Shown here in pieces: positions 7,419-24,292 of a DNA stretch of 30,260 bases. The stretch lies in the UHGV virus genome UHGV-0035817; one strand, 5' to 3'. Below the pieces are notes generated by a model that was not told where the DNA came from, ran no database searches, and saw only the letters and a program-made list of their open reading frames with translations. Numbering within the stretch: position 1 is the stretch's first letter; every line of letters starts with the position of its first letter. The DNA comes from a virus. A program made the position numbers and the translations under genes.

Positions 7419-8012
7419 CTATTTGTCCCGGTTGGTTAAGGGATGACACAATTTATTTTTTGTCACTGAGGCGGGGAATTTTTTATAGAGCGTGGACAGG
7501 CCAATATCAAAAATCAGTGCCACGCGTTGACGTGATTCCCCTGCAGCCAGCAACCGCCCGGCCTGCTCCCACTCACTCGCGGTGAGTTTCGGACGTCTGC
7601 CACCAATACGACCTTTGGCTCTGGCCGCCTCCAGTCCGGCGCGTGTCCGCTCGACAATGAGTTCTCGTTCCATTTCAGCCAGGGCACCCATCACATGAAA
7701 GAAAAAACGCCCCATCGGCGTGCTGGTATCAATAGCATCCGTCAGGCTGCGAAAATTAATGCCGCGTTCGCGCAGTTCCTCAACCAGAATGACCAGATGC
7801 CGCATACTACGCCCCAGCCTGTCCAGCTTCCAGACTACCAGAGTGTCACCTGCTGATAATGTTCTGAGCAGTTTTTTTAGTCCCGGTCGGTCGGACTTCG
7901 TGCCGCTGATTTTATCCTCAAAAATCAGCTCACATCCTGCGCACTCCAGCGCGTTACGCTGCAATTCCGTGTTCTGGTCATTTGTTGATACACGAACATA
8001 ACCTATACGCAT
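7419..8012 (-). CDS. Serine-family DNA invertase (Gin/Pin/Hin/Cin family, 197 aa)
   Basis: MRIGYVRVSTNDQNTELQRNAL...DTLVVWKLDRLGRSM...GINFRSLTD.IDTS.PMGRFFFHVMGALAEMERELI.ERT: catalytic Ser in YVRVSTNDQ and C-terminal HTH, very close to Gin as I recall it. Confidence 0.9.
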   Translation of the reverse strand: MRIGYVRVSTNDQNTELQRNALECAGCELIFEDKISGTKSDRPGLKKLLRTLSAGDTLVVWKLDRLGRSMRHLVILVEELRERGINFRSLTDAIDTSTPMGRFFFHVMGALAEMERELIVERTRAGLEAARAKGRIGGRRPKLTASEWEQAGRLLAAGESRQRVALIFDIGLSTLYKKFPASVTKNKLCHPLTNRDK

Positions 8013-8209
8013 AAAAATCCCTATAAAAACAGAATAATGACAGAGAATTATCTATATATGTACAAGCGGACAAGGCTATGGGCACTCAGTTACAGTAATC
8101 TTGCTGGATAAGAATATTTACTGATAGTGGATACATAGCCCACTTAGCATTCCCATGTGAAACAATTAAGTATGGTAAGATAGGTTGACCTCAATAAAAG
8201 GAAAATCTG

Positions 8210-8527
8210 ATGAACATCGATACCAATAAAAAAACCACCACACTGAAATATTTTGTCGAAGCCTATCCAGAGAGAATCACTGTTCAAGCGTGGGAACGCC
8301 TAGTCAATGAAATTGGTGATTTAAAAGAAGTTTATGGATATATCGCCTTTCTGCATGACGATGGGTATCTTACAGGAAAGGTAATCTTCGATGGTTCTCC
8401 TGAAAGTATTGATGGATGGAGTGTAGATACTGCCTCTCTAAGGATTACATCACAAGGTTATCATTATTGGAAAAAATTAAACCCTACAACACAAGGGAGT
8501 AGCGGAATCCTCAGAAGGAACAGATAA
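8210..8527 (+). CDS. Hypothetical protein (105 aa), AT-rich orphan gene between invertase and invertible segment
   Basis: RBS AAAGGAAAATCTG-ATG; AT-rich upstream region; followed by a long hairpin; no similarity I can recognise. Confidence 0.6.
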   Translation: MNIDTNKKTTTLKYFVEAYPERITVQAWERLVNEIGDLKEVYGYIAFLHDDGYLTGKVIFDGSPESIDGWSVDTASLRITSQGYHYWKKLNPTTQGSSGILRRNR

Positions 8528-8533
8528 CTAATA

Positions 8534-8565
8534 AAGATGGTAGCACCATTTGGTGTTACCATCTT
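8534..8565 (+). terminator. Hairpin downstream of the 105-aa ORF (AAGATGGTA...TACCATCTT)
   Basis: 9-bp perfect stem plus extended imperfect stem; no strong T-run, so terminator function is uncertain. Confidence 0.4.
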
Positions 8566-8654
8566 AAAATATACCGTTACAATCAGCACTTTCCATTTTT
8601 ATCTAACAATCAATACTAGGACATTCCCTTCTTTCAACATCATATTTAACCGAT

Positions 8655-8680
8655 TCCATAAAACGTTGGTTTGGGAGAAG
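8655..8680. repeat. Invertase crossover site, left (gix/pix-like 26-bp site)
   Basis: TTCCATAAAACG TT GGTTTGGGAGAA; half-sites resemble the TTATCCAAAACC / TTCCTGTAAACC family; 16/17 match in inverted orientation to 10406-10422. Confidence 0.75.
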
Positions 8681-9132
8681 GTTCTGCGTTGCCTGTTGGC
8701 GTACCAGTTCCTTGGCCTTCAGCTACGCCGCCGACAGGCTGGCTGAAATGCAACGGGGCTGCTTTTTCGGCTGAAGAATACCCGGAGCTGGCAAAGGCTT
8801 ACCCGACAAATAAATTGCCTGATTTACGCGGTGAATTTATTCGTGGCTGGGATGACGGACGTGGAGTGGATGCCGGGCGACAATTATTATCTTCACAGGG
8901 GGATGCAATAAGAAATATTGAGGGATTCGCAGATGGCGGGATCGGCATGTCTTTTGATGCAATCAGAGGGGCTTTTTACGATGCAGGAACACGATCAACG
9001 ACAATGGCGAATAACACAACTGCTATAGGCAAAACCGATGACCTTGGATTCGACGCCTCTCGTGTCGTGCCAACAGCTAATGAAAACCGTCCACGTAACA
9101 TCGCCTTTAATTATATTGTGAGGGCTGCATAA
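8671..9132 (+). CDS. Alternative tail-fibre C-terminal domain (Sv'-like), silent in this orientation
   Basis: ORF without its own ATG or RBS that begins inside the crossover site in frame (…GEGSALPVG…); would be fused to the constant part of H after inversion. Confidence 0.7.
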   Translation: MGEGSALPVGVPVPWPSATPPTGWLKCNGAAFSAEEYPELAKAYPTNKLPDLRGEFIRGWDDGRGVDAGRQLLSSQGDAIRNIEGFADGGIGMSFDAIRGAFYDAGTRSTTMANNTTAIGKTDDLGFDASRVVPTANENRPRNIAFNYIVRAA

Positions 9133-9725
9133 TGAAACCTGTTTTTGATGAAAATGGGCTGGCTACAGTACCGGGTAATATGCGTTGTTTTTATTATGAG
9201 GCAGTTACGTATGAATATACTGGCTGGTCTGATGAATATATTAATACTGGCGTAAGTATGCCCGCTTGTTCCACTGGTATTGACCCGGGCGAATACATTC
9301 CGGGAAGAGTGGCAGTATTTACGGGTAAGGGATGGAGCCATGAAGAAGACCATCGCAATGAGACTGTTTACTCAACAGAAAATGGCGCAGCTGTTACAGT
9401 GGATTATATCGGTGCCATCAAAGACGGTTATGTCACGCTTTCACCGTTAACGCCATACGATAAATGGGATGGTGAGAAATGGGTGACGGATACCGAGGCA
9501 CAGCATAGCGCCGCACTAGACGCGGCAGAAGCACAGCGCCAGTCACTGATTGATGCAGCAATGGCTTCCATTAGTCTGATTCAGCTGAAATTACAGGCCG
9601 GACGGAAACTGACTCAGGCAGAAACAACCCGACTTAACGCCGTGCTGGATTACATTGACGCGGTGACGGCAACAGATACCAGCACCGCGCCGGATGTCAT
9701 CTGGCCTGAACTGCCGGAGGCGTAG
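9132..9725 (+). CDS. Alternative tail-fibre assembly chaperone (U'-like, 197 aa)
   Basis: C-terminus ...[15 protein letters not shown], the typical tail-fibre assembly ending, shared with the convergent gene 9697-10125. Confidence 0.8.
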
Positions 9726-10125
9726 GCCATTCAATATCGGGTGCTGTTGAAGTATCAACACGCATCAGCAGCACACGGTATTTCTTCCATTCGGTGAGAG
9801 TTGAAGTTTCTTCATCAGTTGCGATATCAGCATCAACAGCATCCTGACGCCAGGATATTTCACTGTCAGCTTTTTCCCGTAATTGGGATTTTTTAACTTC
9901 AGCAATAGCTATTAATTCCTTTTTGGTCGGCTGAGGAATATCTATCAGTGCTGGTTTTCCATTCAGTGTTCCAATCTGTTTTCCTGGTGGAATATCCATA
10001 AATAACTTTTTATGTTCTTCCTCACTGACTATTACACCATCATCAGGCCACAGACCTGATGCCTCAAATTTTTCTTTCTCCGATATGGGGAAAAAGCCAT
10101 TTGCTTTAGCGCTCCATACGTACAT
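9697..10125 (-). CDS. Tail-fibre assembly chaperone (gpG/U-like, 142 aa), expressed orientation
   Basis: Immediately downstream of H on the same strand; C-terminus ...[19 protein letters not shown]. Confidence 0.8.
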
Positions 10126-10126
10126 A

Positions 10127-11470
10127 TCAATACCCCACCGCTATAATGTCCACATTAAATCCCCCGGGACCTGCCTGCCAGATGCTGACCCCTGTTAATG
10201 ATTTTGTTTGATGAACAACCGCCACATTTGCTGGCGATAGTGTTTCAGTTGTTACAGTACCGATATCATTCCAGTTAATTGAGATGGAATATTTCGTTGT
10301 TGTAAACGACCGGGGGAAAGTTATGTGTCTTGCATTGGTGCCAACAGGAAATCCAAGATAAACACGCTGAATTATCATTCCTCCAGGTAACATAACCCAG
10401 TTAGCACCTTCTCCAAAACCAAGGTATGCGAGAAGACCAGCCACATCCTTTCCACTCAAATTAGTAAGCGTATTGTCCAGCGGTTGTTTGCCTGCCAGTG
10501 CATTAAGCACTGTTGTTGAAAAGTTAGGGTCATTCCCCAGCGCCGCCGCCAGTTCATTCAGTGTATCCAGTGCCGCAGGGGCAGAACCCACCATTGCCGC
10601 AATTGCTGATTTCACAAAAGCCGTGGTGGCAATCTGTGTATTGTTGACCGACTGTGCCGCAGTAGGTGCTGTTGGCGTTCCGGTAAGTGCGGGACTCGAC
10701 AGCGGCGCTTTCAGTGCCAGCGCATTGTTAATGGTGGTGCTGAATTTCGGGTCATTGTTAATGGCTGCGGCAATTTCTTTCAGTGTGTCCAGCGTGGCTG
10801 GCGCGCCGTTAATCAGAGCGGTAATAGCGGCCTGAACAAACTCAGTGGTCGCAATCCGCGTGGTGTTATTCCCTGCGGCAGGCGTCGGCGCTTTTGGTTC
10901 TCCGGTAAATGTCGGATTATGTTTCTGTGCATACTGGGTATGAGGATCCTGTGCGGCAATGTGGTTTCTCATCTGGTCATCCACATACAGCCTTAATTCC
11001 AGGACTTCATCATCCACGTATTTACGGGTCGCCAGTACCACCGACGGGTCGATTTTCAGCGTGATGGCTTCGGTATTCGTGACAACCAGAATCATGCGGA
11101 TAGTCTGGGTACGACCACTGCCTTCCTGTAACTGCGGTTTGTACGTTTCCGGGCAGTTCGCCACCGCAATGAGTACGCCTTCATCATCATAAAGCCCAAT
11201 CTCACGGATCCAGAATCCGCCCTCGTTCTCAGGGATGATTTGCTCCGCAATAATCTGGCTCTGGTTGTTCGGGTCAACACTCAGAAGATTCAGCGGCGCG
11301 ATGCGTTTCTGGTTAATCAGTTTTGTCTGTGCCGGGTCTGGTGTCGGCAAGACACCATTCGCATCACCAACGGCCATTTGCGTCAGATTCAGCTTACTGC
11401 CGAGCATCGTCGCGTTAGCCAGCCGTGCTGCGCCCTGATTAGTCAGAATGGCGTAGTATTTCACTGTCAT
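10127..11470 (-). CDS. H: Tail fibre protein H (447 aa in current orientation)
   Basis: N-terminal region resembles P2 gpH (…[13 protein letters not shown]…YKP…EGSGR…), internal fibre repeats ([16 protein letters not shown]); C-terminal ~100 aa lies within the invertible segment. Confidence 0.85.
10409..10434. repeat. Invertase crossover site, right (inside H)
   Basis: TTCTCCAAAACC AA GGTATGCGAGAA; lies in the H reading frame at the motif LGFGEG. Confidence 0.75.
10505..10880. repeat. Diverged tandem repeat inside H encoding two copies of a ~45-aa fibre repeat
   Basis: Protein repeats [35 protein letters not shown] / [35 protein letters not shown]; coordinates approximate. Confidence 0.5.
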
Positions 11471-23210: not shown

Positions 23211-23213
23211 ACA

Positions 23214-23238
23214 TCGCCGCCTGCGGGCGGCTTTTTTA
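23214..23238 (+). terminator. Rho-independent terminator of the P-Q operon
   Basis: GCCGCC-TGCG-GGCGGC followed by TTTTTT. Confidence 0.8.
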
Positions 23239-23379
23239 CACCCCGTCATCACGCCCTCACACGCTCACCACCGCGCAAAACAGCCCGCAGACAAACCAAC
23301 GCCCCGGCGCACAATCTAAACGCCATTACGACGCGCTGAGACGCTGAAAAAATAAAATCAGCACCACCGCCAGCGCGCA

Positions 23380-23398
23380 GTGCTTTCCCCGCCTCGCC
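23380..23398. other. cos site (19-nt cohesive end)
   Basis: GTGCTTTCCCCGCCTCGCC is the reverse complement of GGCGAGGCGGGGAAAGCAC, the P2 cohesive-end sequence as I recall it. Confidence 0.8.
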
Positions 23399-23683
23399 CG
23401 CCCGCTTCACGGGGCGGTTTTAATGCAGTTGCATAGATACTATGGATCCGCACCAGTCCTGACCGCACGCAGCCTGAACGGACATCCCCAACGCATGCAA
23501 AAACATTCACTTGTTGCATGCATAGCTTTTTAAGTACGCCATACCGCAACTGTACATTTTTAAGCAATTGGCAACCTTAAAAAATTTACATTGCTTTCAA
23601 GACCTTATCATCCGTAGTCTCTGTTTTTTACTTTGAGCTACATCAATAAAATCTCAAACATGTTTAATGCAAAGCCCTTGTTA

Positions 23684-23737
23684 CACAACATAGAATGTAT
23701 GTCTAGAAACAACGACATACTATATGTTGTGTTTTTC
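23684..23737 (+). ncRNA. Long imperfect hairpin (about 17 bp paired) followed by T5; candidate small RNA 3' end or terminator
   Basis: ACACAACATAGAATGTATGTC ... GACATACTATATGTTGTGT then TTTTT; lies ~450 bp past the P-Q terminator, so it ends some other short transcript. Confidence 0.35.
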
Positions 23738-23876
23738 CGGCTCTCTGTTCGGTGATATGCCAAATCACTTTGCGTTTAAACAGAGCATTATTTCAGGGCA
23801 AGACTTCGCTCAAAAGTCATTCCACCTAAGAAGCGCATATACCGGTGGAAGTTGCCCTCTACTTACAGGAGGCAAT

Positions 23877-23990
23877 ATGAAGAAATGCTATTACTGCATT
23901 CTCGTTCTGGCCCTCTTTGGCTATCCAAACGGTAGTCCGAGTGGTTTGTCAGTAAACGTCAGTAATATCAATGTCAGCATTATGCTTTAA
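23877..23990 (+). CDS. Small ORF (37 aa) with hydrophobic N-terminus
   Basis: AGGAGG 4 nt upstream of ATG; MKKCYYCILVLALFGYPNGSPSGLSVNVSNINVSIML; stop is followed within ~15 bp by a strong bidirectional terminator. Confidence 0.4.
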   Translation: MKKCYYCILVLALFGYPNGSPSGLSVNVSNINVSIML

Positions 23991-24002
23991 TATGCTTCAA
24001 AC

Positions 24003-24033
24003 AAAAAAACCACCTGCCAGGGTGGTTTTTTTG
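24003..24033. terminator. Bidirectional rho-independent terminator (A7-ACCACC...GGTGGT-T7)
   Basis: GC hairpin flanked by A-run and T-run; terminates the small ORF on plus and probably the A operon on minus. Confidence 0.75.
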
Positions 24034-24292
24034 CGCCCATCATCAATACGATGAAAGACTGACAAGACTTCGCTCAAGACGAATTATGCGTCGACATAAG
24101 GTTACCCGCAATGATTTTATTAGACTAAATGGATGGCCTTTTATGACCCGGATCAAACGGCTGTCCTTACCGACATGCTAGTCACTCAATAGCATTTAGC
24201 CTTCTAATTCAGCATGCTATTGACCTTCTGCTGCCCCATAACTGCTCCGCATAAGCCATTCAATGCCATATCAAATCACGTTGTGTTTTTAC

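Follow-up and report, generated by a model that had tools for sequence, protein, structure and literature searches.

A probable Pin-type inversion switch between two tail-fibre tips in a P2-like prophage

The virus genome UHGV-0035817, analysed here over its full 30,260 nucleotides (the window), contains two 26-bp sites in opposite orientation, one of them inside the P2-type tail-fibre gene H, with a serine DNA invertase gene nearby. The sites enclose about 1.8 kb of fibre and chaperone genes. The question raised by this locus is whether the enclosed segment works as a switch and, if so, to which known systems it belongs. A preliminary description, made from the sequence alone, had read it as a Mu/P1-style invertible segment grafted onto a P2-type tail module. 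Our analysis indicates, with a probability of roughly 0.9, that it is a functional site-specific inversion switch of the Pin type, located in the slot between genes G and FI of a P2-like E. coli prophage, where P2 has fun(Z).

If the segment inverts, both orientations should be found in otherwise identical genomes. A prophage of E. coli elppa4 shares 99.98-99.99% identity with the window over all 30,260 nucleotides, apart from the segment, which is flipped: the elppa4 match to positions 8663-10422 is on the opposite strand, and only four mismatches lie outside the invertible segment. After inversion in silico, the sequence matched elppa4 in one piece with 100% coverage, and no genome matched the native-orientation sequence with at least 80% coverage. 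The elppa4 sequence contains the two 26-mers predicted for the recombinant sites and lacks the two parental ones. At the left site of elppa4 the outer half is in place and the inner half has been exchanged, with the exchange confined to positions 8666-8672, core included. Mismatches between the two arms, at site positions 4-7, 9, 12 and 20, place the exchange between positions 12 and 20, a stretch that contains the central dinucleotide.

The same flip distinguishes the members of two more pairs of near-isogenic strains, namely the Danish poultry isolates 723_010814_2_1 / 729_141114_1_15 and the ST2747 genomes CP007393 / CP007394. Both pairs share with the window the spacer between invertase gene and left site and the invertase itself (in ST2747 a close variant of it), but their two cassettes are different ones. 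In both, the variable base of the inner half-site moves together with the segment, and either orientation leaves H intact. The invertase protein is identical in elppa4 and the poultry pair (WP_052933248.1), and the ST2747 variant is WP_025210642.1. Orientation was examined in six of the 24 genomes that carry the spacer. Therefore, the two orientations anticipated in the preliminary description do occur in nature, in three strain comparisons with exact junctions.

The crossover sites were defined from the repeat itself. A repeat finder reported an inverted repeat of 23 nucleotides at 8663-8685 and 10403-10425 (87% complementary). The right 26-bp site, inside H, occupies 10409-10434 (TTCTCCAAAACC AA GGTATGCGAGAA, with the core AA at 10421-10422), as first described; the left site occupies 8654-8679 (TTCCATAAAACG TT GGTTTGGGAGAA, with the core TT at 8666-8667), one base away from the 8655-8680 originally given. 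The two sites are in opposite orientation, and both cores are AA once the sites are read in one direction. Common to the two is the half-site TTCTCC(C/A)AAACC. The half-sites that face the segment are TTCTCCCAAACC and TTCTCCAAAACC, and the outer half-sites are more degenerate. A 17-nucleotide pattern, TTCTCCNAAACCAANGT, occurs at only two places in the 30 kb, namely at the two sites and in opposite orientation, with 0.08 chance matches expected. The proposed likeness of the half-sites to the known crossover family held up on alignment, as both sites can be aligned with those of e14, P1 (cixL) and Mu (gix). The reverse complement of the left site (TTCTCCCAAACCAACGTTTTATGGAA) nearly matches an e14 site (TTCTCCCAAACCAACGTTTATGAAAA), and the right site differs from a site of Escherichia phage pro483 (TTCTCCCAAACCAAGGTATGCGAGAA) at one position. 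Neither the 17-nucleotide pattern nor the bare 12-nucleotide half-site revealed a third crossover site in the 30 kb. With only two sites found by these scans, a multi-inversion system like Min of p15B or the three-repeat locus of enteropathogenic E. coli (EPEC) was rejected.

Between the sites lie two convergent cassettes, each consisting of a tail-fibre C-terminus and a chaperone gene. The constant N-terminal part of H (10435-11470, minus strand) lies downstream of the P2-type genes I, J, W and V and matches the Phage_tail_fib N-terminal domain (1e-62). Its open reading frame continues without interruption into the variable C-terminus predicted to be currently expressed (10127-10408, minus strand), which has a weak match to Gp53-like_C (1.3e-4, under the Pfam cut-off), so that the present H spans 10127-11470 on the minus strand and has 447 residues. 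It is followed by the corresponding assembly chaperone of 142 residues (9697-10125, minus strand; Caudo_TAP, 1e-33). On the plus strand are the silent alternative C-terminus of H, with a Collar domain (8680-9132; Pfam Collar, 1e-15; PHROG tail collar fibre, 2e-75), and a silent, TfaE-like assembly chaperone of 197 residues (9132-9725; Caudo_TAP, 1e-27). The two chaperone genes overlap by 29 nucleotides at their 3' ends, as they do in pro483 and in e14, where they are likewise convergent.

The reading frames across the sites are those expected of a fibre switch. The right site lies in frame within H (...LGFGEG...), and the left site opens ...GLGEGSALPVG..., from which the silent Collar reading frame starts without a promoter, ATG or ribosome-binding site of its own. 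The frames given in the preliminary description (LGFGEG in H, and a promoterless reading frame at GEGSALP) were thus reproduced. Inversion in silico between the cores yielded an uninterrupted H of 504 residues with the silent Collar cassette fused in frame, and a tail protein of 504 residues is annotated in E. coli elppa4. The suggested swap of the H C-terminus together with its chaperone (9697-10125 for 9132-9725) keeps the frames both ways and is represented by the natural inverted variants.

Some further features of H and its cassettes were observed. Residues 1-257 of H are 98% identical to H of pro483. One stretch of pro483 H is matched twice here, by residues 185-271 and again by residues 259-345 (window 10435-11470), suggesting that some 74 residues have been duplicated within the constant part (residues ~185-345) and have since diverged. 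The length of H in related prophages differs by exactly 74 residues (399/473 and 441/515), and a tandem repeat search in H at the DNA level detected none. At about 10307-10311 the window has a run of five G (a C run on the H coding strand) and elppa4 has six. The elppa4 copy of this cassette is silent and would be frameshifted, so that the difference is either a real mutation in an unexpressed copy or a homopolymer sequencing error. It should also be noted that RefSeq, in one orientation, divides H into a pseudogene marked 'incomplete' and an independent gp53-like protein (locus L003, 5357-5746 and 4325-4735; locus L008, 5136-5525 and 4326-4736). The reading frame of H in these loci is actually continuous (473 and 399 residues), and the split is an annotation artefact linked to the switch.

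The gene next to the segment encodes a serine DNA invertase of the Pin/Cin/Gin/Hin family (7419-8012, minus strand; 197 residues; Pfam Resolvase, 4e-52, and HTH_7, 5e-13; PHROG 'DNA invertase', 4e-100). It has the organisation of a small serine recombinase, with an N-terminal catalytic domain carrying the nucleophilic serine and a C-terminal helix-turn-helix. The catalytic motif YVRVSTNDQ, with Ser9, is conserved. The protein is 96% identical to the invertase of pro483, 88% to PinE of e14, 79% to P1 Cin and 77% to Mu Gin, and its best match among solved structures is Gin (3uj3, 6e-94). The C-terminal tail of the invertase is longer than in Pin or Cin, and the junction with P2 homology is at TTGTG. 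The last 11 codons (KLCHPLTNRDK, then stop; window 7419-7456, minus strand) fall in the pF late-promoter region of P2, overlapping the annotated binding site of the Ogr activator; therefore, the longer tail is read out of P2 backbone promoter DNA.

Invertases of this type are associated with a recombinational enhancer inside their own gene in Mu and P1, and the 5' coding region of the invertase had been named as the place to look for a Fis-bound enhancer here. In the enhancer-dependent systems (Hin, Gin, Cin, Pin) this element acts in cis through two Fis-binding sites, and inversion requires Fis and DNA supercoiling. In the P1 record the Cin enhancer is annotated at nucleotides 19-90 of cin. 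The equivalent nucleotides of the invertase gene (window 7923-7994), a putative Fis-dependent enhancer by homology only, are 80.6% identical to cin, versus 72.1% over nucleotides 91-420. They include one Fis-like 15-mer that is the same in cin, GCGCAGGATGTGAGC (nucleotides 71-85 of the gene), and fits a loose Fis consensus.

Taken together, these features suggest the following mechanism. The invertase (7419-8012) would bind both 26-bp sites and would presumably be activated by Fis bound to the enhancer in its own 5' coding region. It would then cut both sites at the central AA/TT dinucleotide, rotate the strands and invert the 1753 bp between the cores. H would be transcribed with the P2 late operon V-W-J-I-H, so expression would be limited to whichever cassette is connected to the constant part of H. 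In the present orientation this should give a 447-residue fibre with a gp53-like tip and the 142-residue chaperone, and in the flipped orientation a 504-residue fibre with a collar-domain, StfE-like tip and the 197-residue chaperone. With one cassette expressed per orientation, a lysogen population would release virions of two receptor specificities. We infer the dependence on Fis and the enhancer, the expression from the late operon and the difference in host range; the two tail-fibre tips probably correspond to two host ranges.

The surroundings of the switch are those of a complete P2-like prophage. The window runs from the fieF-side end to the cpxP-side end of the element, and the elppa4 prophage lies between cpxP and fieF in the chromosome of a blood isolate from Taiwan. 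Profile searches identified P2-type genes (tail_P2_I, phage_P2_V, tail tube and tape measure). The tail and baseplate genes are in P2 order, as in Peduoviridae, and the pF region upstream of the sheath gene FI is nearly identical to the pF late promoter of P2. In elppa4, P2-family capsid, Cox, Ogr and replication endonuclease genes are annotated. The best DNA matches of the window are Peduovirus genomes, others of which also have an annotated DNA invertase and two chaperones. An Rfam scan of the whole window returned nothing. Positions 23211-24292, between the portal gene and replication gene A, correspond to the old/tin hotspot slot of P2. In elppa4 this slot is about 1.1 kb without an annotated gene, and the sole candidate, an 88-residue reading frame at 23724-23990, has a hydrophobic segment resembling a signal sequence. 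The end of this interval nearest the portal gene probably contains the cos site.

We compared the locus with known invertible tail-fibre systems. The proposed Mu/P1-style reading is correct as to mechanism, but the closest characterised relative is the Pin/P segment of the defective prophage e14 in E. coli K-12 (pinE, stfE, tfaE, tfaP, stfP), by invertase, sites and the StfE/TfaE-like cassette. The e14 sites nearly match those in the window (TTCTCCCAAACCAACGTTT... and TTCTCCCAAACCAAGGT...), and the silent cassette is 60-64% identical to StfE and TfaE (60% and 63.5%, respectively). The segment measures 1797 bp in e14 (2025 paper) and 1781 bp here. On the other hand, e14 is what remains of a lambdoid prophage and its pinE lies about 55 bp from the site, whereas here the tail operon is of P2 type and complete and the distance is 642 bp. 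The expressed cassette of the window (gp53-like tip and 142-residue chaperone) is distant from StfP/TfaP of e14, at 33%. Mu (Gin/G) and P1 (Cin/C) follow the same logic, with a constant fibre N-terminus, two cassettes of C-terminus plus chaperone, 26-bp sites and an enhancer within the invertase gene. However, they have other phage backbones and larger cassettes, and the Mu gix half-sites (TTATCCAAAACC) and core differ from those here. In P1, cin points to the segment and its 3' end overlaps cixL.

The second half of the proposal, that the segment was grafted onto a P2-type tail module, is accurate in that the module does sit in a P2 tail operon, but the arrangement is not unusual. Fels-2 (a P2-like prophage of Salmonella LT2, with invertase STM2702) and pro483 have the same order, FI, invertase, H', G', G, H, I, J. 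In both, the invertase adjoins the segment without an orphan gene, unlike here, and the cassette sequences differ (40-65% identity). In P2 the order is G, terminator, fun(Z) and pF-FI. The fun(Z) hotspot is the same slot, between the fibre chaperone gene and pF of FI. P2 has fixed H/G, as the preliminary description had stated: its record shows fun(Z) and lacks an invertase. According to a 2024 preprint on phage hotspots, a DNA invertase with inverted neighbouring genes is frequent at the P2 Z/fun hotspot, among varied cargo. Furthermore, in P2-like prophages of EPEC E2348/69, coexisting orientations have been demonstrated experimentally in clonal cultures (Goldberg et al. 2014, PMC4272514). 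At those loci an invertase and inverted repeats give alternative C-termini of one tail-fibre protein; one locus has two variants and the other has four variants with three repeats, compared with two sites and two variants here.

The uncommon detail of the locus is an insert of 641 bp between the invertase and the left site (8013-8653). It is AT-rich, with a GC content of about 0.37-0.41 versus 0.51-0.59 in the flanking P2 backbone genes, and presumably carries the invertase promoter. Alignment with pro483 breaks off exactly at the ATG of the invertase gene and picks up again exactly at the left site, with the 641 bp in place of a 56-bp spacer. Among 5426 complete E. coli genomes, 24 carry the insert; no phage record does. 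It carries an orphan gene of 105 residues (8210-8527, plus strand), which lies outside the switch and reads toward the left site and the promoterless cassette. The orphan gene had no match in Pfam, PHROGs, NCBIfam or PADLOC. Its homologues form only five clusters, from E. coli and Citrobacter, and those of Citrobacter likewise lie in convergent orientation immediately beyond the tail-fibre and chaperone genes of prophages. An AlphaFold model built on a six-sequence alignment (predicted local distance difference test score, 50) was too poor for a fold search. A hairpin follows the gene at 8534-8565; it lacks a T-tract and was not called by the terminator scan. In the consensus scan for promoters and terminators, counts were not clearly above shuffled expectation.

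The preliminary description had placed the invertase about 650 bp from the segment across the orphan gene, in agreement with the 642 bp measured from the invertase start (8012) to the left site. This offset is no mechanistic problem. The insert does not stop inversion, because the flipped strain pairs all carry it, and the presumed enhancer is about 0.7 kb from the left site, compared with about 0.5 kb between the P1 enhancer and cixL. The orphan gene may best be treated as cargo of the fun(Z) hotspot, possibly a new cargo gene. That the insert is more than passive cargo we consider unlikely. It could in that case be a tail-fibre-linked lysogenic-conversion gene (for superinfection exclusion or receptor masking), or supply transcription into the silent cassette, so that the switch would alter the phage sensitivity of the lysogen in the manner reported for StfE2 of e14. 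A role of the orphan gene in the lysogen is speculative.

Several observations weigh against a functional switch driven by its own invertase. The evidence for inversion is a comparison between strains, not reads from one culture. The native region upstream of the invertase has been replaced by the 641-bp insert, which bears on the level of expression, and no promoter was called by the consensus scan in the interval that separates the invertase from the orphan gene (8013-8209). As for the enhancer, a strict Fis-consensus scan found one convincing 15-mer, not two. The two candidate 15-mers are 49 bp apart, versus 47 bp reported for hin, with the second site uncertain, and extra conservation at synonymous sites over the enhancer was a trend short of significance (6/19 versus 12/80, p = 0.11). 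Because the second Fis site is uncertain and the synonymous-site test was not significant, we infer the enhancer rather than report it. In addition, members of this invertase family can substitute for one another. The P segment of e14 is inverted by PinQ from prophage Qin (2025 paper). Another invertase in the same genome could therefore flip the segment.

This last point leads to the explanation that the segment does flip, but through a host invertase of the Din family (Pin of e14, PinQ or PinR) acting in trans, the local invertase being poorly expressed or inactive since the orphan-bearing insert took the place of its upstream region. The loss of the native 56-bp upstream region at the exact break in pro483 homology, the empty promoter scan and the near identity of the sites to those on which PinQ acts in trans in e14 all favour it. 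However, the invertase reading frame is intact and retains all residues invariant among five aligned invertases. Moreover, WP_052933248.1 has been kept in elppa4 and the poultry pair, and a close variant in the ST2747 pair, all of which were found in both orientations, and a simple promoter scan is insensitive in AT-rich DNA. We therefore regard action in trans by a host enzyme alone as quite improbable. Still less credible, to the point of being extremely improbable, is that the orientations arose by rare RecA-dependent homologous recombination between short inverted repeats or are an assembly artefact. The arms do share 17-23 bp, but this is at or under the minimum length for efficient RecA recombination, and the repeats are recognisable crossover sites beside a cognate invertase. 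Three prophage lineages underwent the same flip independently, the exchange being limited to the centre of the site, and a long-read assembly cannot be misled by a 26-bp repeat.

Whom the switch serves is a separate matter. According to a 2025 paper, inversion of the e14 P segment creates StfE2, which blocks adsorption of T2, and a host-side function for such switches is conceivable. The present switch might then serve the lysogen more than the phage, with one orientation yielding a prophage-expressed fibre fragment or chimera that masks a surface receptor and blocks other phages, perhaps with participation of the orphan gene. The 60% identity of the silent cassette to StfE and the orientation of the orphan gene toward the left site and that cassette are consistent with this. 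But the prophage looks complete and P2-like, so its virions need a fibre, the silent reading frame lacks both an ATG and a ribosome-binding site, and the hairpin at 8534-8565 intervenes past the orphan gene (though it has no T-tract and was not called as a terminator). We judge this very unlikely, and favour a Pin-type switch that alternates the tail-fibre tips of the phage.

As invertible tail-fibre cassettes in P2-like phages have already been documented, the locus is one more instance of a known arrangement and nothing conceptually new. Its use lies mainly in annotation, where the prophage can be marked as able to make two kinds of virion. The switch also accounts for the entry of H as a broken pseudogene when automated pipelines annotate one of the orientations, and for the 1.75-kb inversion that sets near-identical genomes apart. 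Finally, the position of the orphan gene indicates that the switch tolerates replacement of the region upstream of its invertase.

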